Positions 1 to 57,645 of a stretch of DNA of 64,000 nt are shown piece after piece. Position 1 is the stretch's first letter; each line of letters starts with the position of its first letter. Origin of the DNA: Pecten maximus (lineage: Eukaryota); contig NC_047019.1 of assembly GCF_902652985.1 (NCBI RefSeq), forward strand, positions 14,190,097-14,254,096. Reading direction: 5' to 3'. Made by a program: the position numbers and the translations under genes. The notes beneath the pieces are model-generated. The model did not search any database, was not told the DNA's origin, and saw only the letters and a program-made list of their open reading frames with translations.

Positions 1-3000
1 ATACCACACAGGGGCTTAATACTACACAGGGGCTTGATACTACACAGGGGCTAGATACTGCACAAGGGCTTGATACCACACATGGGCTTGATACCACACA
101 GGGGCTTGACACCACACAGGGACTTGATACCACACAGGGGCTTGATACTACACAGAGGCTTGATGCTACACAGGGGTTGACACTACACAGGGTCTTGATA
201 CTACACAGGGGCTTGATACTACACATGGGCTCGATGCTACATAAGGGCTAGATACTACACAGGGGTTTTATACCACACAGGGGCTTGACACTACACAGGG
301 ACGTGACATCACACAGGGGCTGGATTCGGGCTTGATACTACACTTGGGCTAGATACTACACATGGTCTTTACACTACATAGGGACTTGATACCACACATG
401 GCTTGATATCACACAGGGGCTTGATACCACACAGGGGCTTGATATTTAACAGAGGCTAGATACTACACAGGGGTTAGATACCACACAGGTGGTTGATACT
501 ACACAGGGGCTTGATACCACACAGGGACTTGATACCACACAGGGGCTAGATACCACACAGGGGTTTGATACCACACAGGGGCTTGATACTACACAGGGGC
601 TTGATACCACACAGTCGCTTGATATCACACAGGGGCTTGATACCATACAGGGGCTTGATACTACACAGGGGCTAGATACCACACAGGGGCTTAATACTAC
701 ACAGGGGCTTGATACTACACAGGGGCTAGAAACCACACAGGGGATTGATACCACACAGGGGCTTGACACCACACAGGGACTTGATACCACACAGGGGCTA
801 GATACCACACAAGGGCTTGATACCACACATGGGCTTGATACCAAACAGGGGCTTAATACTACACAGGGGCTTGATACTACACAGGGGCTAGATACCACAC
901 AGGGGCTTGATACCACACAGGTGTTTGATACTTCAAAGGGGCTTGACACCACACAGGGACTTGATACCACACATGGGCTTGATACCAAAAAGGGGCTTAA
1001 TACTACACAGGGGCTTGATACCACACAGGGGCTTGATACTACAGAGAGGCTTGATACTACACAGGGGCTAGATACCACACAGGGGCTTGATACCACACAG
1101 GGGCTAGATACCACACAGGAGCTTGATACCACACAGGGGCTTGACACCACACAGGGACTTGATACCACAAAGGGGCTTGATACCACAAGGGCTTGATACT
1201 ACACATGGGCTTGATACTACACAGTGGCTAGATACCACACAGGGGCTTGATACCACACAGGGGCTAGACACTACACAGGGGCTTGATACCACACAGGGGC
1301 TTGACACCACACATGGACTTGATACCACACAGACGCTTGATACTACACAGATGCTAGATATCTCACAGGGGCTAGATACCACAGAGGGGCTAGATACCAC
1401 ATAGGGGCTAGATACCACACAGGGGCTTGATACCACGCATGGGCTAGATAGTATACAGGGGCTAGATACTACACAGTGGCTAGATACCACACAGGGGCTT
1501 GATACCACACAGGGGCTAGATACCACAGGGGCTTGATACTACACAGGGGCTTGATACTACACAGGGGCTTGATACCACACAGGGGCTTGATACTACACAG
1601 GGGCTATATTCCACACACGGGTTTGATACCACACAGGGGCTTGATACTACACAGGGGCTTGATACCACACAGGGGCTTGATACTACACAGGGGCTTGATA
1701 CCACACAGGGGCTTGATACTACACAGGGGCTATATTCCACACACGGGTTTGATACCACACAGGGGCTTGATACTACACAGGGGCCTGATACCACACAGGG
1801 GCTTGATACTACACAGGCGCTTAATACTACACAGGGGCTAGATACCACACAGGGGCTTAATACTACACAGGGGCTTGATACTACACAGGGGCTAGATACT
1901 GCACAAGGGCTTGATACCACACATGGGCTTGATACCACACAGGGGCTTGACACCACACAGGGACTTGATACCACACAGGGGCTTGATACTACACAGAGAC
2001 TTGATGCTACACAGGGGTTGACACTACACAGGGTCTTGATACTACACAGGGGCTTGATACTACACATGGGCTCGATGCTACATAAGGGCTAGATACTACA
2101 CAGGGGTTTTATACCACACAGGGGCTTGACACTACACAGGGACGTGACATCACACAGGGGCTGGATTCGGGCTTGATACTACACTTGGGCTAGATACTAC
2201 ACATGGTCTTTACACTACATAGGGACTTGATACCACACATGGCTTGATATCACACAGGGGCTTGATACCACACAGGGGCTTGATATTTAACAGAGGCTAG
2301 ATACTACACAGGGGTTAGATACCACACAGGTGGTTGATACTACACAGGGGCTTGATACCACACAGGGACTTGATACTACACACGGGCTTGATATCAAACA
2401 GGGGCTTGATACCACACAGGAGCTTGATACTACACAGGGGCTAAATACTACACAGGGGCTTGATACAACACAGGGGCTTGATACCACACACGGGTTTGAT
2501 ACCACACAGGGGCTTGACACCACACAGGGACTTGATACCACACAGGGGCTAGATACCACACAAGGGCTTGATACCACACATGGGCTTGATACCAAACAGG
2601 GGCTTAATACTACACATGGGCTTGATACTACACCGGGGCTAGATACCACACAGGGGCTTGATACCACACAGGTGTTTGATACTTCAAAGGGGCTTGACAC
2701 CACACAGGGACTTGATACCACACATGGGCTTGATACCAAAATGGGGTTTAATACTACACAGGGGCTTGATACCACACAGGGGCTTGATACTACACCGAGG
2801 CTTGATACTACACAGGGGCTAGATACCACACAGGGGCTAGATACCACACAGGAGCTTGATACCACACAGGGGCTTGACACCACACAGGGACTTGATACCA
2901 CTCAGGGGCTTGATACCACAAGGGCTTTATACTACACAGGGGCTATATTCCACACACGGGTTTGATACCACACAGGGGCTTGATACTACACAGGGGCTTG

Positions 3001-5225
3001 ATACCACACAGGGGCTTGATACCACACAGGGGCTTGATACTACACAGGCGCTTAATACTACACAGGGGCTAGATACCACACAGGGGCTTAATACTACACA
3101 GGGGCTTGATACTACACAGGGGCTAGATACTGCACAAGGGCTTGATACCACACATGGGCTTGATACCACACAGGGGCTTGACACCACACAGGGACTTGAT
3201 ACCACACAGGGGCTTGATACTACACAGAGGCTTGATGCTACACAGGGGTTGACACTACACAGGGTCTTGATACTACACAGGGGCTTGATACTACACATGG
3301 GCTCGATGCTACATAAGGGCTAGATACTACACAGGGGTTTTATACCACACAGGGGCTTGACACTACACAGGGACTTGACATCACACAGGGGCTGGATTCG
3401 GGCTTGATACTACACATGGGCTAGATACTACACATGGTCTTTACACTACATAGGGACTTGATACCACACATGGCTTGATATCACACAGGGGCTTGATACC
3501 ACACAGGGGCTTGATATTTAACAGAGGCTAGATACTACACAGGGGTTAGATACCACACAGGTGCTTGATACTACACAGGGGCTTGATACCACACAGGGAC
3601 TTGATACTACACACGGGCTTGATATCAAACAGGGGCTTGATACCACACAGGAGCTTGATACTACACAGGGGCTAAATACTACACAGGGGCTTGATACAAC
3701 ACAGGGGCTTGATACCACACACGGGCTTGATATCACACAGGGGCTTGATACAACACAGGGGCTTTATACTACACAGGGGCTTGATACTACCCAGGGGCAT
3801 GATACCACACAGGGGCTTGATACTACACAGGGGCTAGATACCACATGGGCTAGATTGCACATGGGCTTGATACAACTCAGGGTCTTGATACAACACAGGG
3901 GCTTGATACCACACAGGGGCTAGATACCACACAGGGGTTTGATACCACACAGGGGCTTGATACTACACAGGGGCTTGATACCACACAGTGGCTTGATATC
4001 ACACAGGGGCTTGATACCATACAGGGGCTTGATACTACACAGGGGCTAGATACCACACATGGGCTTAATACTACACAGGGGCTTGATACTACACAGGGGC
4101 TAGAAACCACACAGGGGATTGATACCACACAGGGGCTTGACACCACACAGGGACTTGATACCACACAGGGGCTAGATACCACACAAGGGCTTGATACCAC
4201 ACATGGGCTTGATACCAAACAGGGGCTTAATACTACACATGGGCTTGATACTACACCGGGGCTAGATACCACACAGGGGCTTGATACCACACAGGTGTTT
4301 GATACTTCAAAGGGGCTTGACACCACACAGGGACTTGATACCACACATGGGCTTGATACCAAAATGGGGTTTAATACTACACAGGGGCTTGATACCACAC
4401 AGGGGCTTGATACTACACCGAGGCTTGATACTACACAGGGGCTAGATACCACACAGGGGCTAGATACCACACAGGAGCTTGATACCACACAGGGGCTTGA
4501 CACCACACAGGGACTTGATACCACTCAGGGCTTGATACCACAAGGGCTTTATACTACACAGGGGCTATATTCCACACACGGGTTTGATACCACACAGGGG
4601 CTTGATACTACACAGGGGCTTGATACCACACAGGGGCTTGATACCACACAGGGGCTTGATACTACACAGGCGCTTAATACTACACAGGGGCTAGATACCA
4701 CACAGGGGCTTAATACTACACAGGGGCTTGATACTACACAGGGGCTAGATACTGCACAAGGGCTTGATACCACACATGGGCTTGATACCACACAGGGGCT
4801 TGACACCACACAGGGACTTGATACCACACAGGGGCTTGATACTACACAGAGGCTTGATGCTACACAGGGGTTGACACTACACAGGGTCTTGATACTACAC
4901 AGGGGCTTGATACTACACATGGGCTCGATGCTACATAAGGGCTAGATACTACACAGGGGTTTTATACCACACAGGGGCTTGACACTACACAGGGACGTGA
5001 CATCACACAGGGGCTGGATTCGGGCTTGATACTACACTTGGGCTAGATACTACACATGGTCTTTACACTACATAGGGACTTGATACCACACATGGCTTGA
5101 TATCACACAGGGGCTTGATACCACACAGGGGCTTGACACCACACAGGACTTGATACCACACAGGGGCTTGATACTACAGAGGCTTGATGCTACAAGTGTG
5201 TGACACTACACAGGTCTTGTATCAC
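1..5225. repeat. Tandem 20-bp satellite (consensus about caggggcttgatacYacaca), about 260 monomers, with an irregular higher-order repeat
   Basis: Direct reading shows a 20-bp period. Long blocks recur (for example 50-500, 1893-2350, 3121-3570, 4741-5100) at spacings of 1841, 1229 and 1620 bp, indicating higher-order units with unit gains and losses. ORFs are open on both strands because the monomer is stop-free in several frames. Confidence 0.95.
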
Positions 5226-5659
5226 AGTCGGCTTTCTGAAGGGTGAGCTACATATGCAGATACTAAAGGGTTATCGAGAAGGGGTGATCACTACTATGGT
5301 AGTGAATGACACAGGGCTGATGGTGAGCCAATTGAGAGAACAGGGTCAATGGTCTTACACTGGTTGAATACAATCTATGATATCACAGGGCTTATCAAAC
5401 TTATATTTACAGAGTAGATACAAGTTTGATACGACATAGGTGTTGATATACACAGGGTTATACACAAATCAGGGACATTTATAACACGGCCTTGACCAGG
5501 TTATACACACCTAATTACTACCAGATATACCGGGGTGATAAACACTGAACCACACGGCATATCACAGGTTCTAAAAGGTTTTTCAATTGAACTAGGTCAT
5601 GTGACCAAGGGCTTGATAATACAGTAAATAACTGGATCACATGGGATATATACAATCAA
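5226..5659. repeat. Degenerate satellite-derived spacer, paralogous to 6866-7265
   Basis: The blocks 'cagggtcaatggtcttacact...aatacaatctat' and 'cttgaccaggt...cacctaattac...ccagatatacc...gataaacactg(a/c)accaca' appear in the same order at 6866-7265. Confidence 0.7.
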
Positions 5660-6312
5660 GGTATACAACACAGGGGCTTGATACCACACAGGGGCTAGAT
5701 ACCACACAGGGGTTTGATACCACACAGGGGCTTGATACTACACAGGGGCTTGATACCACACAGTGGCTTGATATCACACAGGGGCTTGATACCATACAGG
5801 GGCTTGATACTACACAGGGGCTAGATACCACACATGGGCTTAATACTACACAGGGGCTTGATACTACACAGGGGCTAGAAACCACACAGGGGATTGATAC
5901 CACACAGGGGCTTGATACCACACATGGGCTTGATACCAAACAGGGGCTTAATACTACACATGGGCTTGATACTACACAGGGGCTAGATACCACACAGGGG
6001 CTTGATACCACACAGGTGTTTGATACTTCAAAGGGGCTTGACACCACACAGGGACTTGATACCACACATGGGCTTGATACCAAAATGGGGTTTAATACTA
6101 CACAGGGGCTTGATACCACACAGGGGCTTGATACTACACCGAGGCTTGATACTACACAGGGGCTAGATACCACACAGGGGCTAGATACCACACAGGAGCT
6201 TGATACCACACAGGGGCTTGACACCACACAGGGACTTGATACCACACAGGGGCTTGATACCACAAGGGCTTTATACTACACAGGGGCTTGATACCACACA
6301 TGGGTTAGACAC
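5660..6312. repeat. Continuation of the 20-bp satellite
   Basis: Same monomer as 1-5225. Confidence 0.95.
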
Positions 6313-7469: not shown

Positions 7470-8640
7470 AATACAACTAACTTTACTAAGTACCTCAAAA
7501 TGATCAGTAGGGTATTTATGGTACAAGTAACAATGTGTTCTGACAAGATGAGTAGGTTTTTTATGGTACAAGTACCAATGTTTTTCGACAAGATGAGTAG
7601 GGTATTTATGGTACAAGTACCAATGTGTTCTGACAAGATGAGTAGGGTATTTATGGTAGAAGTTTCAATGTGTTCTGACAAGATGAGTAGGGTATTTATG
7701 GTACAAGTACCAATGTGTTCTGACCAGATGAGTAAGTTATTTATGGTACAAGTACCAATGTGTTCTGACAAGATGAGTAGGGTATTTATGGTACAAGTAC
7801 CAATGTGTTCTGACAAGATGAGTAGGGTATTTATGGTACAAGTTTCAATGTGTTCTGACAAGATGAGTAAGTTATTTATGGTACAAGTACCAATGTTGTC
7901 CCACAAGATGAGTAGGGTATTTATGGTACAAGTACCAATGTGTTCTGACAAGATGAGTAGGTTATTTATGGTACAAGTTTCAATGTGTTCTGACAAGATG
8001 AGTAAGTTATTTATGGTACAAGTACCAATGTGTTCTGACAAGATGAGTAGGGTATTTATGGTACAAGTACCAATGTGTTCTGACAAGATGAGTAGGGTAT
8101 TTATGGTACAAGTTTCAATGTGTTCTGACAAGATGAGTAGGGTATTTATGGTACAAGTACCATTGTTGTCCCACAAGATGAGTAGGGTATTTATGGTACA
8201 AGTACCAATGTGTTCTGACAAGATGAGTAGGTTATTTATGGTACAAGTACCAATGTGTTCTGACAAGATTAGTAGGTTATTTATGGTACAAGTACCAATG
8301 TGTTCTGACAAGATGAGTAGGGTATTTATGGTACAAGTACCAATGTGTTCTGACAAGATGAGTAGGGTATTTATGGTACAAGTTTCAATGTGTTCTGACA
8401 AGATAAGTAGATTATTTATGGTACAAGTACCAATGTGTTCTGACAAGCTGAGTAGGGTATTTATGGTACAAGAACCAATGTGTTCTGACAAGATTAGTAG
8501 GTTATTTATGGTAGAAGTACCAATGTAGTCCAACAGGTTGAGTAGGGTATTTATGGTACAAGAACCAATGTACTCTGACAAGATGAGCAGGGTATTTATG
8601 GTACAAATACCAATGAAGTGTGATGTCTGACATGATGTGT
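7470..8640. repeat. Tandem 45-bp satellite, about 26 copies
   Basis: The unit 'gacaagatgagtagggtatttatggtacaagtaccaatgtgttct' has a 45-bp period. The 15-aa periodicity in the ORFs on both strands is an artefact of this. Confidence 0.95.
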
Positions 8641-9298: not shown

Positions 9299-9737
9299 AT
9301 GGATTCCGATGAAGATGATCGTATTGGTTTTGAAAACCAGGCCAGGATGGATCCATTTGATGTGATTATCAATGATCTCATTATGGAATTAGATGCTGAT
9401 GATTTGATATTCAATGAGGTTGTCAACCTGTCAAAGACTCCACTTGGGTTTTCTCATGATTTAAAATCTGGTGAAGAATATTTCAGACTTCTGGGGAATA
9501 ACTTGGGTAAGGAAGACATGCTGGATTTTCTGATTAATGTGACAGATTATCAGAACTGGCATTGTGACTTTGGTACTGAGAGGGTAGCAGACAGACTAAA
9601 GAAATACAAAGATAAGCTTGAGAAACACAAACAACAATGGAGGAGGAAGGACATTTTTGATCCCAATTTTGTTGGAAGGGACAAAGAAATCAACTCTATC
9701 ATGGAAGGAGTGCAGAATGAACACGGCACATTCACAG
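9299..9737 (+). CDS. NB-ARC/TPR STAND NTPase gene, coding exon 1 (ATG at 9299). It encodes an N-terminal domain of about 145 aa that is a possible death-fold.
   Basis: The ORF starts at the ATG. The donor is cacag|gtaagt at 9738 and leaves phase 1. The exon ends in 'FVGRDKEINSIMEGVQNEHGTFTG', which leads into the P-loop. An acceptor-like 'catttgtag' at 9190 suggests an upstream 5'UTR exon. Confidence 0.8.
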
Positions 9738-9938
9738 GTAAGTCATGAGAATCCTTTATAAAAAAGGCAACCACTGATGTGATATATGGTGGCATCAATA
9801 TTTTACTTTTAATTTGTTGCGACTGGATAGAAAAATCAATAATTTAACGTGTTGGGACTAGATAGAAAAATCAATAATAATGACTGAACTTGATGGTGTT
9901 TAAAAATACCATATTTACCCACAAATCATTCCTTCTCT

Positions 9939-10155
9939 GCGGTGGCCGAGTGGTCAAGGTGTCCCGACACTTTAACACTAGCCCTCCACCTTTGGGTTGC
10001 AAGTTCGAAACCTACGTGGGGCAGTTGCCAGGTACTGACTGTAGGCTGATGGTTTTTCTCTGGGTATTCCGGCTTTCCTCCACCTCCCAAACCTGGCACG
10101 TCCTTAAATGACCCTGGCTGTTAATAGGACAAAATAAACCAAACCAAATCCTTCT
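9939..10155 (+). mobile_element. tRNA-derived SINE copy in intron 1 of the NB-ARC gene
   Basis: The head 'gcggtggccgagtggtcaaggtg...ggttgcaagttcgaaacc' is tRNA-like (D-loop and T-loop-like boxes). The body is 'ccaggtactgactgtaggctgatgg...ctggctgttaataggac' and the tail is A/C-rich. Confidence 0.6.
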
Positions 10156-10743
10156 CTTAAAGTGGTCCACCAACAAGTCTTCCCCAAACTTAATACATTA
10201 CTAAACTTTCACAATGTAGCCAGCTGATGGTCAGGACAGGTGAGAAAGGTACTGTAAACATACATATTTTAGTGGTAACCTTATTTTAGCGCTTTTCACT
10301 CTATATTACGCAAAATCATTAATGTGCTAACTTAATAATCTATGAAATTAGCATTGATTATTTAAGTGAAATTGCAATTGGGTACCAGAGACTTGCAGAA
10401 TTTCATATCCCTGGTTTCCAAAATTCACCAACATAATGATGTTTTGTGATGCAAAAGTATTGAAATACTATAGCTTACACTGTATGCTTTCTTGCCATAA
10501 ATTTGTTAGGTTTTGGTGAAAACACATAGATCTACGTGATGTATAACTGTAAGTAAGTTTTGGAGATTGCTTTAAAATCCACTCCTCTGACAACGTCAGA
10601 TAATATGACGCAGTGTAATTGTTGTCACATTTAGATTTGTAGTTGTAAAAAAAATACGGTAGAAGAGGTTAAATCTTTTGATTCAGAATTAATAAAGATG
10701 TGTGATATCATATCAAACACTAATCGTATGTTCTGATTGGCAG

Positions 10744-10855
10744 GTGTGAGTATATTTGGCTCTGGAGGCATAGGGAAGACATCTCTGGGCAATGAAGTTT
10801 GTCGTCGACTTTGGGCCTTATCAAAAAACTGGCAAGTCATCAAAATTGATCTCAG
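10744..10855 (+). CDS. NB-ARC gene exon 2 (P-loop / Walker A)
   Basis: The acceptor is ttggcag|GT and the donor is ctcag|gtaaac. The exon encodes VSIFGSGGIGKTSLGNEVCRRLWALSKNWQVIKIDL, with the GxxxxGKT Walker A motif. Confidence 0.85.
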
Positions 10856-10887
10856 GTAAACTGCATAAGCACATTTACACTGTGCTT

Positions 10888-11000
10888 TTGGTTTGTTTAA
10901 CGTCCTATTAACAGCCAGGGTCATTTAAGGATGTGCCAGGTCTTGGATGTGGTGGAAAGATGGAGTGTCGGGACACCTTAACCACTCAGCCAACGCAGCC
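10888..11000 (-). mobile_element. Inverted, internally deleted copy of the same SINE, 33 bp downstream of exon 2
   Basis: This is the reverse complement of the 9939-10155 element (gtcctattaacagccagggtcatttaagg...gtcgggacaccttaaccactcagccaacgcagcc), with a central deletion of about 100 bp. Confidence 0.6.
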
Positions 11001-11564
11001 CCCAGTACGCTGTGCAAATAACTTCTTAGAATATAATCATAGTGTCCAAATGTGTAAAAATCTTAAAACAATGATTTCCTAAAGAGACACAGAGGCCTGA
11101 TTAAGTGATATTGGACCAATAGTATGCTGGAATGAAAGGCTACTAAGGACCTGTTACAGTATGGTTACATTGATTTTTGCCCACAATCAAATTTAATAAT
11201 TCCTGGGTGATATTTGTAGTACTATATGAGACAACCCATGAAGTATGTTTAAAAAATTCAAAAGGTCACAGGGGCCTGTTCTATGACCATTTTAGTATTA
11301 CCCTACATAGGAGTGTGACAGGGTTCCATTTTTAGTCAAAATAATGCACTTTTTTTAATGAATAAAGCTAGCCTACTCTGATATTTCAATAAAGTGGAAA
11401 TCAGCTTAGTATCTGCATAAATGACCTAAATCAACTTCATAGTTGCCCTAGAAGCAGGTGAGCGATACAGGTCTCTTTGTTGCTTTTTTTATTTGTCATC
11501 TTATATTAAAACTACATGTATTTTTATGATAACTACATATTATCATACCCCCTGAAACGAAGTG

Positions 11565-11945
11565 AGTGTATACTGGAATCAGGTTGTCCGTCCGTCTGTA
11601 GACACAACAATGTACCTGCTACTCCTCCTGAACTACTGAGGGAATTTCAACGAAACTTTATGGCAATAACCCTTATACATTGTAGATGTGCATAATCTTT
11701 ATTGTAATTTTGTGGTTACCATGGTAACCAGGTCACTATACTTCATTTTTTGGGTGAGTCCATAGTCACAACGATGTACCGGCTACTCTTCCTAAACTAC
11801 TGAGGGAATTTCAATGAAACTTTATGGCAATAACCGTTATACATTGAAGATGTGCGTAATCTGTATCATGTTGTAATTTTGTGGTTACCATGGTAACCAG
11901 GTCACTGTACTTCGTTTTTTGGGTGAGGGGGGATTTTGTCCAGTT
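11565..11945. repeat. Intronic tandem duplication of about 190 bp, 2 copies. It contains the palindrome ggttaccatggtaacc and a (gtcc)n-like motif.
   Basis: Two adjacent near-identical blocks read directly. A related fragment lies at 12040-12310. Confidence 0.75.
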
Positions 11946-12589
11946 ATCTCCTCATAAACCTGTGAACTGCTTCATGTCAAACTAAACAGGAGTGATAGGG
12001 ACCATGTGTAAATGTGCATGCATGATATTTATCTACAGAATTTTTGATTTCCATGGTTACCAGGTTTTAATGCCCATATTTTTGTGGAAAAGTTTGTCAA
12101 GACAACTTGGACAACTCCTTCATAGCTATCAACCGATTTCGTTTGAAATACATGTACACAGGAATATTAGGAAATCATAATGTGTACATTTGCATGCAGG
12201 TTTTTTCCCCCACAAATTTAGGTTGCCGTGGTAACCCGTTCACTAAAAACAAGTTTTTGTTGGAAAATCTTCACCAGAGGGGTGGTGGAGGGGCGGGGGG
12301 TATGAGTTGGCCCTCTGGACGACAGTTCTAGTTAACTTTGTCTTCGGTAAATACTTATTTTCAGGTTAATAAATCCATACATTGACCTTATCAAAAGGCT
12401 ATAACTGTATAGTGTTGAACTTTACTGATGAGCGAATATTCTAGTATAAAAAAAGCAAACAGAATGATTTTCACTTACAAAAAGAATTACTGTAAAGTGA
12501 ATGTAAGCTTCTGAAAGGTAAAAATCCATTTTGTACGAGCAGAAACAAGTAACATCACCTGTTTAAATGAATGTTTACTTGTGTTGCAG

Positions 12590-12762
12590 AGGGAAATACT
12601 CGATGGGAGATTTAATGAAGGACATTATCTTAGAGCTTCAACTGAAGGATGATGGAACAATGTCAGATGCTGATTCAGATGACCTGCAAAACAGCCTAAA
12701 AGATGCAATGGAAAGCAGGATGCAAGCTAACATTTTAAACCACCTAGGCAAAATCACACGCA
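12590..12762 (+). CDS. NB-ARC gene exon 3
   Basis: The acceptor is tgttgcag|a and the donor is cgca|gtaagtat. The phase is compatible with exon 2 (AG+A gives Arg). The exon encodes GKYSMGDLMKDIILELQ...NHLGKITR. Confidence 0.8.
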
Positions 12763-13439
12763 GTAAGTATATATTTGTGTTCATTATAAAAAGTGAGATC
12801 TTCACTTGTAATGGCTGTTAAGTACAGTCTGTGTTATGGCTAAATGTGTTACACAAAATGTCTCATCCGGTGTCATAGGTCAAGGTTGTTTCTAGTATGG
12901 GCTCTCTGACTAGATGTGGCTGTTGTCCTTCTGATATTGAATTTTCCCCCCTAAGCAACTTCTTCTCAGTATCCCAGAGACACATGGCTACAATACTGAT
13001 CCTTAAGAATATTGTGCTAAAGGGCTACCTTGCAAATATGTGAAAATTTTAATGATTTTTTTCTCAATAACAAAAAGGTCACGCGTGTCATATGTAAAAA
13101 TCCAGTTGCATAGTTGGATTCCAAAATATCCAGATGAATATAATATAGTTTACTGTGTTTTGTATTGAAGAACTGAATATCATCCATATCATCTTTGAAG
13201 TTGCATTAGTAACAGTCATGAGTGATACATGCCTATTGGACCTCTTGTTTTGTATTATTACAATGACTTTCCAAAAATCATAACTGTTATACTTTTAAAA
13301 CTTAAGTCTGGGGAAATAATACGATGATTTCTTTTCAAAGTGTAAAACAATGAATCAATCTAATTTAGATTTGCATGCAATTAATTACCATTGTAGAATA
13401 CTATCTCTAATGTTTGTTTGTTTTTCTCGATCACAACAG

Positions 13440-13546
13440 GAACGATTGTCATGCTGGATAATGTTGATGATATTATCCACAAAAATGAAAAAGGATTTAT
13501 ACCATTTGTCAAAATGCTATTGAATGCAATACAGACAAAATGCAAG
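13440..13546 (+). CDS. NB-ARC gene exon 4 (Walker B)
   Basis: The acceptor is cacaacag|g and the donor is caag|gtaaga. The exon encodes TIVMLDNVDDIIH..., with the hhhhDD Walker B motif. Confidence 0.85.
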
Positions 13547-13749
13547 GTAAGACCAATTTAATCTGACTTTATTTGAGAATGTTGTTTTGTGTCAGGTCTG
13601 GAAATAACAGACCAAAACTTACATGATGTATGTCATTAAAAATCTTGAGGCAGGTCTGAGCAAGGAGACATCAAAATGTTTTTGAAAATCTTGAGTTGCA
13701 GGTTCAGATAATGTGTATTTAATGTTTCTTGTCGATGACTTTATCCTAG

Positions 13750-13899
13750 GTCCGAGTTATCATTACAAGTCGTGTAAGCCTCCAGCGTGACAGATTTGGA
13801 GGAACCTTGACAGAACTGAGGGATCTCCTATCTGAAGTGGAAGTTCGACAGCTGCAGGTAGACGATGCTAAGGAACTGATCAGAAAGTGTACTCCAAAA
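13750..13899 (+). CDS. NB-ARC gene exon 5 (RNBS-B / sensor-1-like TSR motif)
   Basis: The acceptor is tcctag|g and the donor is aaaa|gtaaga. The exon encodes VRVIITSRVSLQRDRFGG...; in-frame, 150 nt. Confidence 0.85.
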
Positions 13900-14408
13900 G
13901 TAAGATCCGTTATCAGAAAATTAAATAATTGATGACATTATCAAGAGGGTGAGATTGATGCAAATAACATGTTTGAATGAAAATAATTTAGTCACTAAAA
14001 TAGGTAATTATCTCCCCTCAAAAATGAATCTTATTTTGTTACATTACTGTTACCTATAGTAGAGTGATGGGAAATAATTCAGAATCAATAATCAGAAACT
14101 CGAAATCGATTAATTATCGATTATAATCGCTTTTCTAAATTTGGCAAGGAGTTGTCCTTTTGCTGAAAATTTATGTTCATCTCAAATGAATTTATTACAT
14201 ATCTTAGCCTTTGTTATCAATGTTTTTATTATTGAACACAAACACAGCATTTAACGGTTGTTAATTCATTTGAATCTCCTTAATCGATGAACCTATTGGT
14301 AAAAGATAAGATCATCCACTTCTTGGTTCAGTAATATTGCAAAAATATGCGAAGCCATAGCTTTACGAACACACTTCCAGATTCCACTTTCCGATTTATT
14401 GCCTTTTT

Positions 14409-15460
14409 AGCTCACCTGGTCCGAAGGACCATGGTGAGCTTATGCCATACTGTAGCATCTGTCGTCCGTCGTCCGTCCGTCCGTCCGTCCGTCAACAATT
14501 TACTTCTTCTTCATAACCACAGATCAGAATTTGACCAAATTTGGTCAGAAGCATCCCTATGGGGTGGGGGACTCAAAATTGTACAAATGGTGGGGCTGAC
14601 CCCCCAGGAGGCTATATTGATATAAATAGCTTCTTCTCTGAAACAAACAATGGATATCACTCATATTTGCCTGGTAGCATCACTATGGGGTGGGGATTCA
14701 AAATTGTAAAGATGATGGGGCTGACCCCCAGGGGCCTGAGGGGCGGGGCAAAATGTGGTCAATTTGGCTATATTGAATAAACGACTTCTTTTCTGAAACT
14801 GAGCAATGGATATCGCTCATATTTGCCTGGTAGCTAGCATCCATAGGGAGTGGGGATTTAAAATTGTACAAATGGTGAGGCTGACTCCCAGGGGGTCTGA
14901 GGGACGGGGCAAAGATGGGTCAATTTCGCTATATTGATATGAACAACTTCTCCTCTGAAACTAAGCAATTCATATCACTCATATTTGACTGGTAGCATCC
15001 CCTTGGGTTAAGGATTCAAAATTGTACAAATTACGGGGCTGACCCCTGGAGGCTGAGGGGCGGAGCCCAAAGGGGTCAATTTGGCTAAATTGATATGAAC
15101 AACTTCTTCTCTGAATCAACTCATATTTGTCTGATAACATCCTTTTGGGTAGGGATTCAAAATTTTATAAAAGAAGGAACTGACCCAAAGGGGGCAGAGG
15201 GCGGGGTCAATTGGTTTAAACAACTTCTTTTCTGAAACTAATCAATGAATATCACTCACATATGTGTCGTAGTATCCTTATGGGGTTGGGCAAAAAGTCA
15301 ATTTCATTTCATGGATTAATGCATTTTTTAGCATAAAAATCTCACATACCCATATAAAATGCCTATAATATATTGACATAGCAATACCAGTGACAAATAT
15401 ACTTAAGCATCATTTTTGTTTCATATCATGAAAACCAGGTGAGCGATACAGGGCCTCTTG
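14409..15460 (-). mobile_element. Helentron-like non-autonomous element (HINE), copy 1, in NB-ARC intron 5
   Basis: It has a terminal hairpin 'agctcacctggtccgaaggaccatggtgagct', a (gtcc)n microsatellite at 14458-14492, and an internal tandem array of about 150 bp with 5 copies. The other terminus is 'ccaggtgagcgatacagggcctcttg'. It is flanked by T on both sides, consistent with a TT target. Confidence 0.65.
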
Positions 15461-15844
15461 TTTTAAAATTGTCATAGATGATTGTTTATTTTTATTTATC
15501 TTCTTTTTTTTTTTTTAACATTTAAACATTTCAATTTGTATTAAATGTTTAAACAGTACATTTTTCAACAGGTACGCTCAACCAAAATTCTCCTCATGGG
15601 TAGTGGTGTTCAGTCACATGACTGGGGATTATTCCAAAGTCATGTAACTTAATATTATTTTTCATCTCTTGCAGATTGGTAGATTACTTAATGCTTTAAT
15701 ATTTCGATTCTATCAGTCAAAGCTCTCATTATTTTCCAGAAAATTAAAACAAGTAGCAACACATTTGTATACTGGTTAGATTTATATCTGATATCCGATT
15801 GTGAAAAATATAATACTCTATACCTGATTATGTGTCTCCTGCAG

Positions 15845-17420
15845 GGGTTGGTATCAGAAGAGGAGTGTTATTGCCTGGTTAAACTGACTGAGAGGAACCC
15901 CCTGGCTTTACGTACAATATGTAGTATTCTGAAAAACTGCTGCAGACAGGTAAAGCCAGCTGAGGTGATTAGACATCTGAGGAGCAATGAAGGAAAACTG
16001 TCCATGGTTGGTATGGAAAAATGCCTCCAGGAGAGTTTCGATAGACTTGAAGATAGCATGAAAAATATTCTGATACAGTTGACATTGTTCAAGACCTCAC
16101 CTTTTGACATCAATGCTGCCAGTGAAGTTTTAAGGGCTGACAATACTCCAAAACCACAAATTTTGCTGACAAAGATGAATCTATTCCATTTGAAAAGCCG
16201 TCACCTTATTGAAGTCCAAGATACGACCATTCAGACAGAAGGAAACCTGAAACAGAACATCCAGCCCAGACCTGAAGAATTGGGAAACATCAACAGAAAT
16301 GTCCTGTATTCCCTACATCCCCTGGTGTTTGAGTTTCTAACCAAACAAAAAAGTCAAATGTCAGCAGTATTGATGCCTGCAAAAATAAGGTTTTTTGAAT
16401 ACATGGAAAGAATTATTGGAATAATCGGAAAGGAGCAAGAAAATTATTATTATAGCACTCAGCTGTATCTAAGAGAGTATCACGTACATATTCAGAGCTA
16501 TTTTGACATTACATTAGAGCTTCAGGGAGATATTGAGACCAGAAGAGTAAATATGACCACATCAAACCGAATTTTGGAGATAGGCCGACGAGTCCTTAAT
16601 CAGGACGGGCAGCTACGATGGCTTCAGTGGGTTACAGATAGAGCTGAACGAAATGGCCAAGTTGATCAGTGGGTCTTCTACCGTGGCTACATGATACAAT
16701 TGCTGACAGAAATGGATACAATTTCTGACATACCAAGCATCATGGATGTTACCGAAAGAAAACTTGATATGAAACTGAGGAGACCTGATACTGGTATGAA
16801 AGTAGCTTTAGGAAATTATCACCATAAAAAGGCAATGTACTTCAAAAAAATAGATAATCGACAGAAGGTCATCGAAAACTTGGAAAAGGCTAGGCAGTAT
16901 TTAGAGGATGAGGACATCAGACCAATGACAAACATGGTTATGATACTTGCCAATGTTTACAACGACCTTGGGTGTTCGTATTATCTACATGATTCAGAGA
17001 AGTGCAGAAGCTATCATGAAAAAGCGATTTCAAAATCGTTAGAAGAACACCCAGATGTGGACATGTTCAAAAACAATCTTGCTGTTTGTCAGTTAAAAGA
17101 TATATTGGACCAGACTTTAGAGCAGTCATCCCGAGATGAGAACATCGAAGAGACACTTGAACATTTCAGCAATGTAATAGCAAAAGGAAGACGGCAAGGC
17201 ACAGATAATACAGATTCACACACAGTAGCTCTGAGAAACAGATCAACATTGTATCTGCACTTAAAACGGTACGAGGAAGCATATTCTGATGCTAAAAAGA
17301 GTCTTGAAGTGCGAAAAAAGATTTTGAAGGACCCGCATGAGGACTTGACTTTGAGCTGTAGCCACGTGGCCCGTATTTTGTATAACTGGGGCGACCAGCA
17401 GATACGCAGTGGGAATATAG
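15845..17420 (+). CDS. NB-ARC gene exon 6: GLPLA-like motif, winged-helix/helical region and TPR-like repeats
   Basis: The acceptor is ctcctgcag|G. A 1.6-kb ORF encodes 'TERNPLALRTICSIL' followed by TPR-like helices (for example ALGNYHHKKAMYF..., ALRNRSTLYLHLKRYEEAYSDAKKSLEV). The donor is atag|gtttgt at 17421 (phase 1). Confidence 0.8.
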
Positions 17421-17465
17421 GTTTGTATTAATTTTCATGTACCCCTCTTTGACATAGGTTTCATA

Positions 17466-17760
17466 ACAAAATATAGTTCATTAGTCCTCCACATAGAACT
17501 AAGATGACCAATATAGTTTACTGGTGACCAGTGGTCCTCCACGCGGAGCCGAGGAGACCTATTGGTCTACTGATCATCCTCATAGAACTAGGGGGATCTA
17601 TAATTTATTGTCCTCCACATGGAACCGAGGTGACCTATAATTTATTGGTCCTCCACATGAAACCAAGGTGACCTACAATTTATTGGTCCTCCACATGAAA
17701 CCAAGGTGACCTATAATTTATTGATCCTCCACATATAATTGAGGTAGCCTATAAATTTAA
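17466..17760. repeat. 40-bp tandem repeat, about 7 copies, in NB-ARC intron 6
   Basis: The unit is 'tggtcctccacatgaaaccaaggtgacctacaatttat'. Confidence 0.85.
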
Positions 17761-17798
17761 AAGCAATGAAATGAAATGTAAATTGGTCCTTTTCACAG

Positions 17799-17977
17799 GC
17801 CTAGGGTTCCCCCACCTTAAGGAAGCTATCCATTTCTACGATGAGGCTCTAACAAAGATAAAGAATGGAGGGTTATCCATAGACCATGAAGAATATGCTG
17901 AAATAAAGAAATTCCACTTGAAAGCTGTAAACAGAGTAGACACAAAAAGAAAACAGCACTTGGAACAGGAATACCAG
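17799..17977 (+). CDS. NB-ARC gene exon 7 (TPR-like)
   Basis: The acceptor is tttcacag|gc and the donor is ccag|gttagt. The exon encodes LGFPHLKEAIHFYDEALTKIKNGG...; the phase is consistent. Confidence 0.7.
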
Positions 17978-18327
17978 GTTAGTTGGAAACAGCTGTTCAG
18001 CAAGCTACGTTGATAAGGTACAAGATTGGTAAATACCGTGTTTGGCTAATGATAAACAAAGTTACATTGTACATTAAACTGTTTCAATCCTCTAAGATTC
18101 TTTCAAGAGATACTTGTAACAAAAATTATGGAAATCCTCAAGGGTGATAAGAAAGTTCATCCTTTAACACTTAACAAATGCTTTATAGAAGACAAAGTTA
18201 TTAACCCTTAACAAATGCTACTCATAGATGCAACCCAGATTAATGTTGAGGTAATGACGGATTGATGTGTCGAGTGTAATTTTAATTTATTACAAATTAA
18301 GGTACAAGTTTTATTTTCCACCAACAA

Positions 18328-18431
18328 ATTATTTAATTGAGGTTCTCCTTATTTACTTGTGGGACTTTGGAAGAGTGCATTATTTAATTGAGGTTCTCCT
18401 TATTTACTTGTGGGACTTTGGAAGAGTGCAT
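18328..18431. repeat. 52-bp tandem duplication immediately upstream of the exon 8 acceptor
   Basis: The unit 'attatttaattgaggttctccttatttacttgtgggactttggaagagtgc' occurs twice. Confidence 0.85.
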
Positions 18432-18459
18432 TGCATTAGAAATAACTGTTGTGTTACAG

Positions 18460-18940
18460 GATCTGGTATACAGAAGATCTAGTATCTTATTTGATAGAGA
18501 GGATAGTGGACATTCCTCGGATGGTGGTAGTGACGAGCAGGGTTCCAGTACCGATGATCTGATGAGTGACATACAGACAGACAGTTCACAGGACGAACAG
18601 ATCAAAACCTCTCGGGATGAGGGAACGTTAAAGGAGATGCCAGTAGATACTCAGAAGACTTTAGATGACACCATGAACTTCCTATCTCCAATGTCCAAGG
18701 GTAAAGGCAGATATGAACATCAAGATTCTGGATATGTTATGGGAGGCAGTACCAGTTCCTTTCGTAGTTCCACATCTCGTCGTTTGTCCAGACAAGAATC
18801 TTTTGAAGTTCTTGATCGACCAAGCATGACATCAAACACTTCGGGATCTTCAGAAGATGTTTTTCCTCCACCTAGTCCACTAGATTTGTCTATGAATGAA
18901 TTAATTGCAAAAGTTTCAAGAAAGTCTTCCAGAAGCAAAG
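18460..18940 (+). CDS. NB-ARC gene exon 8 (acidic, Ser-rich disordered tail)
   Basis: The acceptor is tgttacag|G and the donor is aaag|gtatct. The exon encodes DLVYRRSSILFDREDSGHSSDGGSDEQGSSTDDL.... Confidence 0.7.
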
Positions 18941-19221
18941 GTATCTAAATGATGTTAATAGTGAAAGGTGAAAAAATCCATTATGACATTTCTTTATAAG
19001 TTTTGAAGATCAAATATTACAACAGAAAACATCACTACAAATTACAGTTTGATCAACATCTATTTATATATTAAGTATCTAACATATCGAGAAATCCTGA
19101 TGGTTCTGATGAAACATCCCTATAGTAGAAACATGTGAACAACACTCTCCAATAAATTGGACCATTGAATGAATCTCCATATTTGCTCACCGTTTTTTTT
19201 ACATATATGACCTGATTTATT

Positions 19222-19882
19222 AGCTAACCTGGTCCGAAGGACCAAGGTGAGCTTATGCCATACCGTGGCGTCTGGCGTCTGGCGTCCGTCGTCCGTCGTC
19301 CATCCGTCTGTCAACAATTGACTTATTTGACTTCTTTTTCATAACCGCTGATCGGAATTTCACCAAATTTGGTCAGAAGCATCCCTATGGGTAGGGGACT
19401 CAAAATTGTACAAATGGTGGGGCTGACCCCCCCAGGTGCCTGAGGGGTGGGGCCAAATGTGGTCAATTGAGCTATATTGATATAACGACTTCTCTGAAAC
19501 CAAGCAATGGATACAGCTCATATTTGTCTGGTAGCACCTACTTGGGGTAGGAATTCAAAATTGTACAAATGGTGGGGCTGACCCCCTGGAGGGCTGAGGG
19601 GCGGGGCCAAACAGGGTCAATTTGGCTAAATTGTTATAAACAACTTCTCCTCTGAAACTAAGCAATGGATATTGCTCATATTCGCCTGGTAGCATCCCCT
19701 CGGTGTAGAGATTCAAAATTGTACAATTGGTGAGGCTGACCCCCTGGGGAATGTTCATGTACCCATATAAAATGCTTATGATATATTGACATAGCAATAC
19801 CAGTGACAAATATACTTAAACATAGTTCTTGTTTCATATCTCATGAATCCAGGTGAGCGATACAGGCCCTCTGGGCCTCTTG
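19222..19882 (-). mobile_element. Helentron-like element copy 2, in NB-ARC intron 8, ending 36 bp before the acceptor
   Basis: It has the same hairpin (agctaacctggtccgaaggaccaaggtgagct), a (gtcc)n tract, tandem subrepeats and the 'caggtgagcgatacaggccctctgggcctcttg' terminus. Confidence 0.65.
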
Positions 19883-19918
19883 TTGTTTTTGTGAGACCTC
19901 ATGTACTTATATTAACAG

Positions 19919-20220
19919 GGAGGAGTCGTTCTCAACAGAGCGATATACCTAACAGGGAAGAGAAACTTTCCAGAGGTCACAGTGACACGACAATTCTTCA
20001 AACCACAGGGAAAGCAGACTGCACTACATCTTTTGATCAAAGGCAGGCTTCGATAGAAGGTAAAGATGAACCTATCAAAGTCCCAGAGAAAGATGAAGGT
20101 CAAGGTGACATGGAGAGTCCTTCAGTACCTGTCAAAGTGACAGGGAAACGAAAGGGTATAGAGGACACAGAAAGTCCGGTGGTACCAGCCAAGTTGACAA
20201 AGGAGGATTTGGGTCATTAA
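19919..20220 (+). CDS. NB-ARC gene terminal exon (stop TAA at 20218-20220)
   Basis: The acceptor is attaacag|gg, 36 bp after a Helentron-like insertion. The phase closes the 3519-nt CDS at exactly 1173 codons including the stop. Confidence 0.7.
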
Positions 20221-23700: not shown

Positions 23701-24094
23701 CCTCATGAGTTGTAAGACTAAACAGAATTTTGTGCTGTATTACATGTTGATAGAAAACGAGGAGATATAAGTTCCCTGGATTTGATAAATTGTACCTACA
23801 ATATGTATAAGTTAATGAAGATAAAACTTCAATATATCAATGATAAAAGGCTGTCCTTACCCCCACCATTAGGGAGGGTAAGGGTTATAACTTGTAAGCA
23901 GCAACTACACAAAGTAACACTTCTCATTGCTGTTATATTTGTTATGTACTAATATCTGATGTACAATGTCATGTAATTATAACGTTTTGTCAGTTTATGA
24001 GTATTTAATACAGTAGTATTATATATTTTTAAGTCAGATATGTGTATTGTACTGTTATTATAATGTATCTATTTTTTTTAAATGCTTATTTCAG

Positions 24095-24590
24095 CCACGT
24101 AAATGACATCCAGCGCATATATGTCATGACGTCATATTGTAACAATGTACTGTATATGACATCCAGCGATGTATGTCATGATATCATATTGTAGCTACGC
24201 AAATGACATCCAGCAAATGTCTGTTATAACGTCATATTGTAACCACCCAAATGACATCCAGCACATGTCTGTCATGACGTCATATTGTAGCCACCCAAAT
24301 GACATCCAGCACATGTTTGTCATGACATCATATTGTAGCTACGCAAATGACATCCAACACATGTCTGTTATAACGTCATATTGTAGCCATGCAAATAACA
24401 TCCAGCACATGTTTGTCATGACATCATATTGTAGCCCTGCAAATGTCATCCAACACATGTCTGTCATGACGTCATATTGTAGCCATGCAAATGACATCCA
24501 GCACTTGTCTGTCATGACATCATATTGTAGCCACGCTTATGACATCCAGCACTTGTCTGTTATGACGTCATAATTGTAGCTGTGGAGACA
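24095..24590. repeat. 60-bp minisatellite, about 8 copies; each unit carries a CRE-like palindrome tgacgtca or tgacatca
   Basis: The unit is 'atgacatccagcacatgtctgtcatgacgtcatattgtagccacSMaa'. Confidence 0.9.
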
Positions 24591-34875: not shown

Positions 34876-37800
34876 CAAGAGGCCCATGGGCCTTAACGGT
34901 CATCTGACAAACACTTACACTTACAGCAGGGACACACCCCTCAATCCAGCATTATTACCATAAATTATTTATCGCAGCCAGTTATGTTTTAGATCAAATT
35001 TGGTTTTTATCCATTTAGCTTGTCCAGGAAGAGCAGCATCATAAAGCAAAATTTTAGCCAAGTTCCCATTTTTGGGGCATGCCCCTCTGTCCCAATAGGT
35101 CAGACAAGACTCATTTATATCAATTAGGATTGCCTTTCCCCAATGATGTTTCATACTAAATATAGTTGTAATCAATTAAGGCATTAAGGAGGAATTGCAT
35201 TTTAAAGAAATATTTAACCTAAGCGCTCCTTTTGCCCCATCTTTTTTTCCCCAGGGGTCAAACCTGTCTCATTAAAAAATATGATTGCCGTCACCTTATG
35301 TTTCACATCAAATTAGGTTGTAATCCACCAAAAGGTTAGGGAGGATTAGGATTTAACAGCAAATATTCACCAAAGTTCCCCTTTTGGGGCCCTGCCCCTC
35401 AGGCCCCAGGGGTCACACTAGCCTCGTTTATATAAAATATGACCACCCTTCCCAAAGGATGTTTCACACCATATTTCGTATTAATCCACCCAAGGGTTAG
35501 AGAGAAGTAGGATTTATAGCAAAAATTCACCAAAGTTCCCCTTTTGGGGCCCCGCCCCTCTGGCCCTAGGGGTCAAACCAGCCTCATTTATATAAAATAT
35601 GATTGTCCTCCTCCAATGATGTTTCACACCAAATTTGGTAATAATTCACTATGGGGGTTAGGAGGAGTAGTATTTTAAAGCAAAATTTCATCAAAGTTCC
35701 CCTTTTGGGGCCCTGGGCCCATATTCATAAAAAAACTTAAGTTAAGTATTTCACTTAAGAAAATACTTAAGTAGGACATTTGTACTTAAGTACTAAAATA
35801 AACTTAAGTATTTACTTAATTCAAGGTTTTATCTTAAGTTGTATTCATAAAACTACTTAAGCTTAAGTATTACTTAAGTTTTTACTTAAAGTTAAGTAAC
35901 GTCACGAGGATGTTTAACTTCCTTTAAAAATACTTAAGTAAATACTTAACAACTCAGGTGAAAGATGTCTTCACGAAATCGACAGAAATCAAATTGTTTT
36001 TAAGAAAAAAAATCATTAACTTCAGATTTTGTTGTATTCCATCATTTAAAACAAGATGTAAAGGTTTGAATCGAAGATGGAGGAGTCAATCTCACTGTCG
36101 TTAAGGCCCATTACGAAGTCAATACTACAACGACACGGAGCAATTGTAGTTTATAAGAAACATACCCATATACCAATCAAATTCTATTTAGATAAAACTT
36201 CATTTTTGTTTCTCTTGCTGACTTTGACAAAGCAGAAATACTGCCTCAAAGTTTTATTGTATCTTTTATTCATTAATCTAAAAAAATGTATATCTATAGA
36301 GTTCTTACCTGTGTATTAAAAAACATTGTGGTTACTTGTACTTTAACTTAAAACCCGTTCATGTGCATTCCAGCCCTGTCATGTAGTACTCCCCTGCTTT
36401 GATAACGAAACGAAAGTTTTAAATAACAGTTGATTGTTGTGACAGTTCTAGCATGCTTGGGGGTGGGATTTTACAGATCGTACAATGTAACTAGGGGTTT
36501 GATATGTACATTTCAACTGATGTTTGGTTTAGTGGAAATCAACTAAAACGTACTTGTTCTCCTTGACTCTACGATGAACACGATATGTGCATTTTTGGCC
36601 TGAACGACGAGGTTAGTCTAATTTTCGTGCATTCTTCCGACTCTCTCCTGATTAATACATTTGATCTGTTCAATCTGCCGGCAACCTGAACCCACGCTTG
36701 CCTATTTGCAGATGCCGACATTCCGTCCTTAAATCGTCCACGTATGACATGTTTACTTTCACTTGTAAACATGTACTAGCCTCACCATCGCCAGACATTC
36801 GTCCTTTGTCCAGTTTGGTCATCTCATCTTTTTTGCTGTTGCCATTTCCGGATTCTGATCGTCTTGGAATGCCAGGAACGCCGGTGCCAAATTTCACGTT
36901 TTACGAAAAACATCACGCAGCTACTTAACAACAACATAGCAACTACATGAAATACTTAAATGTTTATACTTAGCTAAGTATGTACTAAGTAAATACTTAA
37001 GTCGTTTATGAATAGTACTTAAGTTCAAACTTGAGTTTTATTTAACTAAGTAAAATATTTATAGTTAAGTATAACTTAAGTCAAACTTAAGTATTTAACT
37101 TAAGATTTTTTATGAATATGGGCCCTGCCCTTCTGGCCCCAGGGGCCACACCAGCCTAATTTATATAAAATATGACCACCTTCCCCCAATGATGTTTCAC
37201 ACCATATCTTGTTGAAATCCACCAAAGGGTTAAGGAGGAGTAGGATTTTATAGCAAAATTTCATCAAAGTTCCCCTTTTGGGGCCCTGCCCCTCTGGCCC
37301 CAGGGGCCACACCAGCCTCATTTATATAAAATATGACCACCCTCCCCCAATGATGTTTCACACAATATCTGGTTGAAATCCACCAAAGGGTTAAGGACGA
37401 GTAGGATTTTATAGCAAAATTTCATCAAAGTTCCCTTTTTTTGGCCCGTCACTCTGGCCCCAGGGCTCACACCAGCCTCATTTATATAAAATATGACCAC
37501 CCTCCCCCAATGATGTTTCACACCAAATTTAGTTGTAATCCACCAAAGGGTAAAGGAGGAGTAGGATTTTATAGCAAATATCCACCAAAGTTCCCTATTT
37601 AGGGCCCGCGAGGCCCCTCTGGCCCTAGGGGTCAGACCAGCCTCGTTTATATAAAACATGATTGTCCTCCTCCAACGATGTTCCACACCAAATTTTGTAA
37701 TAATCTACTTTTGGGTTTTGGAGGAGTAGTATTTTAAAGCAAAATTTCATCAAAGTTGCCCTTTTGGGGCCCCGCATCTCTGGCCCCAGGGGTCACACTA

Positions 37801-43651: not shown

Positions 43652-44104
43652 CTACAGAAAGACAACAACACAAAATAATCTTAACTTCATTATAACATTA
43701 CTCGTACAATATCCATTTATACATTCTTAAATTCTGCATATTAGTTTTGGTGTAGACTTGAAACTAAGAAGTATTTGTGTTTTGAATACTTGCATCATGT
43801 TTTGTCTTATTTAAAAGCAAAATGAAAACACATATTCTACTTAGAGTGGAAATGACCTTGGGCAATAACCCTCAGACACCTTCATCACAATTCCCTGTGT
43901 TGTGGCACAATAAGATGTTATCAAAGATGATAACACAAATTCCATTGTCATCAGACAGACATTGGGCAAAACACATGGTCTTGGTGGTAGGGTTATACTA
44001 TCATGGATAATATATAGATTTTTGGATGGATACTGAAATACATTGCCATTAGCTTAATGAGAATTGTTCATGGAATATCATATTTTGTAATCATTTTACT
44101 GTAC

Positions 44105-57486: not shown

Positions 57487-57645
57487 CTGAAAAATACAAA
57501 CAATGATATTCAACACCAAACTATCAATTGTTAAAATCCAGTTATGCTACACTAAATATTCAGAAATTCAGGAGATAATGACTATGATAAGTGTCATTTA
57601 TTTGTGTTCAGGATTTTCGAAGTAGTCATAAATTAACCCACATAC

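Follow-up and report, generated by a model that had tools for sequence, protein, structure and literature searches.

A scallop STAND ATPase gene combining a putative divergent death effector domain with an NB-ARC module and a TPR solenoid

Here we describe a gene in a stretch of 64,000 nucleotides from the scallop Pecten maximus—positions 14,190,097 to 14,254,096 of the forward strand of contig NC_047019.1, NCBI RefSeq assembly GCF_902652985.1—which we refer to as the window, and whose own coordinates are used throughout. The gene, LOC117327245, occupies 9299–20220 on the plus strand. An original prediction made from the letters of the window had proposed nine exons with a closed coding sequence of 3519 nt and a product of 1172 amino acids (aa), and rebuilding the model independently from the window sequence gave the same exons. 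All eight introns run from GT to AG, and the spliced coding sequence has no internal stop and closes with a TAA at 20218–20220. From end to end, the translation matches the RefSeq entry "uncharacterized protein LOC117327245 [Pecten maximus]" with 100% identity, so the exon model of the prediction is the RefSeq model. The start codon has A at −3 and G at +4, with an in-frame stop eight codons upstream.

Orthologs of similar length, each 57% identical, come from the scallops Ylistrum balloti (at 97% coverage) and Mizuhopecten yessoensis, and three Mytilus species have relatives at 27–30% identity; protein alignments of scallops and mussels pass without gaps through those junction positions that were inspected. 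The locus is an intact, correctly spliced P. maximus gene. The opposite view would be that the nine exons make no functional mRNA, being an annotation artefact or a decaying gene on which RefSeq agrees merely through the same ab initio logic; transposable elements do crowd the introns, and inverted copies resembling short interspersed nuclear elements (SINEs) flank the 112-nt exon 2. We consider this highly improbable, given a 3.5 kb frame that stays unbroken over nine exons in AT-rich DNA, splice sites that are all canonical, and similar-length orthologs in Ylistrum and Mizuhopecten that can be aligned through the inspected junctions. The conservation of catalytic and nucleotide-sensing residues, and an AlphaFold model that is confident over aa 17–930, speak against it as well.

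The protein is a cytosolic STAND ATPase built, from its N-terminus, of a death effector domain (DED), an NB-ARC module (P-loop domain, helical domain 1, and a winged helix with His485), an arm, a kinesin-light-chain-type TPR region extending to aa ~927, and a disordered tail. The original prediction had the NB-ARC module, the repeats, and the tail right and overlooked the DED. To place the protein we used an exhaustive HMMER search with aa 1–558 as the query against 1.84 billion cluster representatives, which gave 190, 51, and 15 matches at E-value limits of 1e-3, 1e-10, and 1e-30, respectively.

Judged from profile comparisons, aa 17–116 are a divergent DED, and this domain is the strongest evidence for a role in death or immunity. 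The region (aa ~17–116) is conserved in about 50 relatives from the exhaustive search, and a 46-sequence profile of it, run against the PDB, retrieved caspase-8 (9e-9), PEA-15 (4e-7), cFLIP (5e-7), and FADD (3e-4)—all of them DEDs. Individually, 12 of the 46 members match PF01335 (best 2.4e-17), and in an amphioxus relative (P0034) the DED, NB-ARC, and TPR_12 jointly pass their Pfam thresholds. A profile of 19 close relatives aligned by hhalign with members that have an RxDL-type motif or are without the clade insertion reached a probability of 97.4% (E = 1.6e-11), a score to which the shared linker contributes a part. Modelled alone, aa 1–125 form a helical bundle (AlphaFold predicted local distance difference test, pLDDT, 76), and the predicted N-terminal bundle has a death-fold to which DEDs are structurally closest. 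Three distant aligned family members carry R-x-D-L (R-E/N/T-D-L) before the last helix. The bivalve clade has an 8-residue insertion at this site, with NWHCDFGTERVAD in the scallop and with His88 and Gly92 invariant among close relatives.

The nucleotide-binding module is more readily recognised. The four NB-ARC signature motifs named by the original prediction are present and in canonical order—GSGGIGKTS from aa 152, IVMLDNVDD from 244, RVIITSR from 279, and NPLALRTI from 345—and two further motifs can be added to them, an hhGRExE-type "FVGRDKE" at aa 124 (NFVGRDKE, aa 123–130) and an MHD-like "SLHPLV" at aa 483. STAND NTPases as a class carry hhGRExE before the P-loop, continue from the P-loop domain through helical and winged-helix domains into a repeat sensor, and work as switches that oligomerise in a nucleotide-dependent manner. 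In the scallop protein the hhGRExE feature is present just N-terminal to the P-loop, and FxGR stands in the consensus of 51 relatives. Of the Pfam families that the prediction expected, PF00931 (NB-ARC) reaches 37.5 bits over aa 131–374, above its gathering cut-off of 23.5, and is matched by 32 of the 51 relatives (best 4.5e-18). ATPase_2, nSTAND1, and AAA_22 exceed their own thresholds too, and NACHT (15.2 against 26.7 bits) and NPHP3_N (17.9 against 24.8 bits, E = 0.0036) remain below theirs.

Key residues of the module are well preserved. P346 of the GxP motif and the MHD-type H485 are at least 90% conserved in the 51-sequence family alignment, with the Gly of GxP replaced by Asn in the scallop protein; D248 and N249 are invariant in six orthologs, as are R279, I281, T283, and R285 in the same six-sequence alignment. 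The Walker B motif reads hhhhDN and not hhhhDD, and DN is found in 73 of the 90 relatives with a locatable motif; D251-D252, two residues downstream of the DN, might be the source of the catalytic carboxylate.

Comparisons with solved structures place the module among NB-ARC proteins. The family profile finds NRC4 (2e-21), PH0952 (3e-19), AfsR (3e-16), and Apaf-1 (1e-15) among PDB sequences, and Foldseek finds PH0952 (1.7e-14) and Apaf-1 (3.7e-10), followed by CED-4 and ZAR1. The profile and both structure searches group the ATPase with NRC2/4, MLA13, Sr35, ZAR1, Apaf-1, CED-4, AfsR, MalT, and PH0952, and NACHT proteins are missing from their best 50–60 matches; the ATPase is nearer to the solved NB-ARC proteins than to NACHT proteins. 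The AlphaFold model (predicted template modelling score 0.70; 552 residues with pLDDT ≥ 90) shows a P-loop domain, a helical domain, and a winged helix followed by the repeat region, and its structural matches include MalT, PH0952, Apaf-1, and NRC2.

For the repeats, the earlier TPR assignment holds at the level of the family and is weaker for the protein taken singly. TPR_12 (PF13424) scores 24.7 bits on the whole protein and 29.8 bits on its C-terminal half, just under the cut-off of 30.1, and PF13181 has no match in it; phmmer with the whole protein against the PDB gives just weak matches to kinesin-light-chain TPRs. Among relatives, TPR_12 is matched by 44 of 51 (best 3e-34), and the family profile retrieves both consensus TPR proteins (2e-50) and the kinesin light chain KLC1 (9e-21). 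The AlphaFold model has an unbroken solenoid of helical hairpins from aa ~500 to 927.

The last part of the protein, aa 931–1172, is predicted to be a disordered tail of ~245 aa (pLDDT ~30), and the tail alone has no Pfam match. Its description as acidic, Ser-rich, and dotted with CK2-like sites is borne out by measurement: over aa 913–1172 we count 16.9% Ser and 18% Asp+Glu with an isoelectric point of 5.0, and the 14 S/T-x-x-D/E sites amount to 5.4 per 100 aa, compared with 2.1 outside this stretch. Nine R-x-x-S/T sites, of the basophilic-kinase type, accompany them. Scallops share the tail patch RRLSRQESFEVLDRPSMTSNTSGSSEDVF, and Mytilus has it in partly conserved form.

The family occurs in bivalves (Pinctada, Saccostrea, Ostrea, Solemya, Sinanodonta, Potamilus, Mactra, Mercenaria, Mya, Dreissena, Mytilus, and scallops), and it is also carried by the brachiopod Lingula, the nemertean Lineus, hemichordates, echinoderms, and amphioxus. 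Its members are all uncharacterised; the bivalve branch is labelled only "uncharacterized" or "AAA+ ATPase domain-containing", and an echinoderm member from Apostichopus is named "DED domain-containing protein". The original prediction called this a lineage-expanded receptor class, which is only modestly true: species show a few paralogs each, and the cluster representatives at E ≤ 1e-3 number 190. One relative departs from the common layout: Dreissena polymorpha LOC127852782 (P0128/P0161) has its DED-like domain at aa 513–641, behind ~500 residues of unidentified sequence, and a second P-loop/NACHT-like stretch near its C-terminus; it could be a fused or mis-merged gene model.

Within P. maximus, a single-sequence search with a Mizuhopecten paralog retrieved two paralogs, LOC117327243 (P0193) and LOC117327244 (P0195), each ~28% identical to LOC117327245. 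The three have consecutive gene IDs on one 51.4-Mb chromosome record, the same trio lies on a single scaffold in Mizuhopecten, and two of the three share one contig in Ylistrum; LOC117327243, LOC117327244, and LOC117327245 form a probable three-gene cluster. Tandem paralogs had been suggested as something to look for nearby, and the 64-kb window holds none, since tblastn with the protein and both paralogs returned only the exons of LOC117327245; going by the consecutive IDs and shared chromosome, the suggestion is probably right, with the paralogs lying outside the window. The paralog lineage P0009/P0193 is 72–73% identical between scallop genera against 57% for LOC117327245, which makes the latter the faster-evolving copy. 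Scallop–mussel identity is 33–35% in the DED and P-loop domain and 18–20% in the arm and TPR region, a contrast to be expected if a conserved core for signalling is coupled to a sensor that evolves faster.

How does this architecture relate to known systems? Candidate identities among well-known animal proteins were considered and rejected. An Apaf-1 orthologue would need an N-terminal CARD and C-terminal WD40 repeats, both of which are lacking—the C-terminal half is an all-helical TPR solenoid without a WD40 Pfam match. A metazoan NLR of the NACHT-LRR kind is rejected on a sub-threshold NACHT and the lack of any Pfam LRR match, and nephrocystin-3 (NPHP3) on its sub-threshold NPHP3_N score.

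Among the nearest known systems are the apoptosome scaffolds Apaf-1, CED-4, and Dark, and also the "Apaf-1-like" homologs of Nematostella, sea urchin, and amphioxus, in which CARD is replaced by DED, DD, or TIR and WD40 by TPR (Zmasek et al. 2007, PMC2246300). Placozoans are reported to have comparable repertoires (PMC6321704), and a role in DNA sensing has been proposed for "Apaf-1-like receptors" (PMC11747288). The scallop protein shares the architecture class of the "Apaf-1-like" homologs, and amphioxus and echinoderm proteins are among its relatives. It differs in that the DED of its branch is too divergent for Pfam and in that the insertion with the invariant His88 and Gly92 takes the place of RxDL. 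No account of the bivalve/brachiopod/nemertean branch, or of the cryptic DED that it carries, came to light in the literature searched, the coverage of which was incomplete.

Other likenesses are partial. The DEDs of FADD, caspase-8, cFLIP, and PEA-15 have the same fold and profile-level sequence similarity; unlike them, the scallop DED lacks RxDL and the helix-2 Phe and has the 8 inserted residues before its last helix, and unlike FADD and caspase-8 it is fused to an ATPase and not to a death domain or caspase. PH0952 (PDB 6mfv) and MalT, which are STAND ATPases of prokaryotes, likewise combine an arm with a TPR/SUPR sensor; they differ in being regulators of prokaryotic transcription and signalling, with DNA-binding or other effectors and no death-fold. 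With plant CC-NLRs (NRC2/4, ZAR1, Sr35) and the NB-ARC-TPR NLR-like proteins of fungi and bacteria, only the module is shared and not the pathway: these belong to other kingdoms, their N-terminal effectors differ (CC, HeLo, and others), and the sensors of plant NLRs are LRRs.

As a switch in the style of Apaf-1 and NLRs with a divergent DED at its front, the protein most likely senses something intracellular and signals cell death or immunity. The steps of such a mechanism can be sketched on the model of Apaf-1, plant NLRs, MalT, and PH0952. At rest, the arm and TPR region would keep the module closed and ADP-bound; binding of a ligand to the TPR sensor would permit ADP/ATP exchange and ring-like oligomerisation. 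The DEDs clustered in this way could form homotypic assemblies with other DED proteins—FADD and/or caspase-8-like initiator caspases—and these assemblies would lead to apoptosis or immune signalling. Regulation by phosphorylation could plausibly act on the tail, in which the RRLSRQES...SSEDVF patch is conserved. As a whole, this explanation (TPR-gated NB-ARC oligomerisation that clusters DEDs toward apoptosis or immune signalling) is one we somewhat favour.

Several observations weigh against it and must be considered. A Pfam search with the N-terminal 128 aa alone finds no match even at E ≤ 10, PF01335 included, so that the DED is visible only by family profile, and a profile limited to the 17 closest sequences as a guard against drift has PEA-15 at its top with just a marginal E of 0.04. 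The RxDL (charge-triad) motif before the last helix is missing in the scallop, with NWHCDFGTERVAD in its place, and by alignment the helix-2 "FL" patch is N43-L44, the Phe position having become Asn43; because RxDL and the helix-2 Phe are lost, binding of canonical DED partners is uncertain. Lastly, the chemistry of hydrolysis may differ with a Walker B motif that reads "DN" and not "DD".

These lost surface motifs would also suit a scaffold outside death and immunity, that is, an adaptor ATPase with TPRs like those of NPHP3 or kinesin light chain, in which a degenerate DED-like bundle has taken on another role (in assemblies of the cytoskeleton, of cilia, or for trafficking, for example). The TPRs are of the kinesin-light-chain type, the scallop protein has a weak NPHP3_N match, NPHP3_N is matched by 13 of the 51 relatives, and the source name of one hemichordate relative is "nephrocystin-3-like". 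We nonetheless regard a scaffold of this kind as unlikely: NPHP3_N stays under its cut-off in the scallop protein while NB-ARC passes its own, and relatives with a canonical DED carry it at the same place in the same architecture. To our knowledge, moreover, a DED, CARD, or PYD fused to a STAND ATPase has proved to be a device for death or inflammation signalling in every characterised case.

The proposed clustering of DEDs would need partners, and such partners plausibly exist, because both FADD and DED caspases are reported from molluscs (PMC11463336). The same source reports Apaf-1 to be absent from molluscs, annelids, and brachiopods (PMC11463336), and a gene family found in bivalves and Lingula might on that account be a housekeeping substitute for it; the best animal structural matches of the death-fold and nucleotide-binding oligomerisation domain are indeed Apaf-1 and CED-4. 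The family is, however, also found in echinoderms, hemichordates, and amphioxus, which are reported with Apaf-1-type genes (PMC2246300, PMC11747288), so the substitution could not be a simple one. Several diverged paralogs per species (~28% identity) and a fast-evolving sensor region suit a family of receptors more than a single scaffold with a housekeeping role, the nucleotide-binding module lies no nearer to Apaf-1 than to plant NLRs, and without WD40 repeats sensing of the cytochrome-c type is not expected; we find the substitute role quite improbable. In its boldest form it would amount to a "DED apoptosome" in Apaf-1-less lophotrochozoans (molluscs, brachiopods), in which an NB-ARC ring under the control of the TPRs would directly seed DED filaments and switch on caspase-8-like initiator caspases—a long shot in our estimation and, if true, without counterpart among characterised animal cell-death machines.

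The gene introduces no new principle: the architecture class has been known since 2007 from cnidarians and invertebrate deuterostomes, and the gene itself is already in RefSeq. Its interest lies in the fact that proteins joining a death-fold, an NB-ARC module, and repeats represent the core design of apoptosomes and NLR-type immune receptors, and that the effector domain of the bivalve branch has diverged too far for Pfam to recognise it. Its identification as a DED provides a concrete, testable link to the FADD/DED-caspase pathway of molluscs, which is relevant to animals reported to be missing canonical Apaf-1 (PMC11463336). Aquaculture immunology, for its part, gains candidate intracellular sensors in what is probably a small, conserved cluster of three scallop genes. 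The features of the gene are collected in Table 1.

Table 1. Exons of LOC117327245 and the protein features they encode (window coordinates).
Feature	Position	Strand	Residues	Content
Exon 1	9299–9737	+	aa 1–146	Start codon, divergent DED (putative), "FVGRDKE" (aa 124–130); GT donor; tblastn 99% identity
DED (putative)	9347–9646	+	aa 17–116	Helices 19–33, 35–49, 58–68, 71–84, 96–117; clade-specific insertion NWHCDFGTERVAD between the last two
Exon 2	10744–10855	+	aa 147–183	Strand beta-1 and Walker A/P-loop GSGGIGKTS (10758–10784); AlphaFold strand 147–152, then helix 158–173
Exon 3	12590–12762	+	aa 184–241	Helices of the nucleotide-binding domain and disordered acidic loop aa 205–221 (AlphaFold pLDDT < 50)
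Exon 4	13440–13546	+	aa 242–277	Walker B IVMLDNVDD (13445–13471), "DN" variant
Exon 5	13750–13899	+	aa 278–327	RNBS-B/sensor-1 RVIITSR (13753–13773)
Exon 6	15845–17420	+	aa 328–852	Helical domain 1 with NPLALRTI (15896–15919); winged helix with MHD-like SLHPLV (16310–16327)
Exon 6, rest		+		Helical arm and most of the TPR solenoid (from ~16784); 533-aa open frame; AlphaFold pLDDT mostly > 90; TPR_12 aa 789–844
Exon 7	17799–17977	+	aa 853–912	Final TPR-like helices (AlphaFold 852–874, 883–899, 901–927)
Exon 8	18460–18940	+	aa 913–1072	End of solenoid (to ~18504), then disordered Ser-rich acidic tail with RRLSRQESFEVLDRPSMTSNTSGSSEDVF (18778–18864)
Exon 9	19919–20220	+	aa 1073–1172	Rest of the disordered tail, and TAA

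The introns of the gene hold repeated elements of more than one kind. SINE-like copies at ~9940–10140 (intron 1) and ~10890–11010 (intron 2) lie in opposite orientation on either side of the P-loop exon 2; they look tRNA-derived by eye, and their arms at 10068–10130 and 10902–10964 are 89% complementary. Scans of the window for tRNAs (ARAGORN) and Rfam families were empty, the SINE-like copies included. Inverted pairs of this sort can favour exon skipping or circular RNAs, and skipping of exon 2 would shift the frame. A non-autonomous element is present in two copies of the same orientation, at 14404–15470 (intron 5) and 19217–19880 (intron 8), which share a palindromic terminus TAGCTCACCTGGTCCGAAGGACCATGGTGAGC, a (CGTC)n tract, internal tandem repeats of ~158 bp, and a common 3' end. 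Related arrays of 158–161 bp lie beyond the gene at 35298–35715, 37120–38372, and 40956–41483, one of them apparently reversed.

Very large minisatellite arrays occupy 1–6304, 7502–8615, 24093–24580, 49208–52166, 53021–53830, and 59290–63998. Their units include 18 bp repeated ~355 times at the start of the window, 40 bp repeated 74 times, and 42 bp repeated 112 times and running off the end of the window; one of 25 copies of 45 bp ends ~680 bp upstream of the ATG of the gene. These arrays are the cause of long spurious open reading frames on both strands and of anomalies in GC content and skew. Two minus-strand open reading frames, at 44091–44894 (267 aa) and 56416–57519 (367 aa), neither with a Pfam match, are long and non-repetitive and look like exons of a neighbouring gene downstream of LOC117327245.

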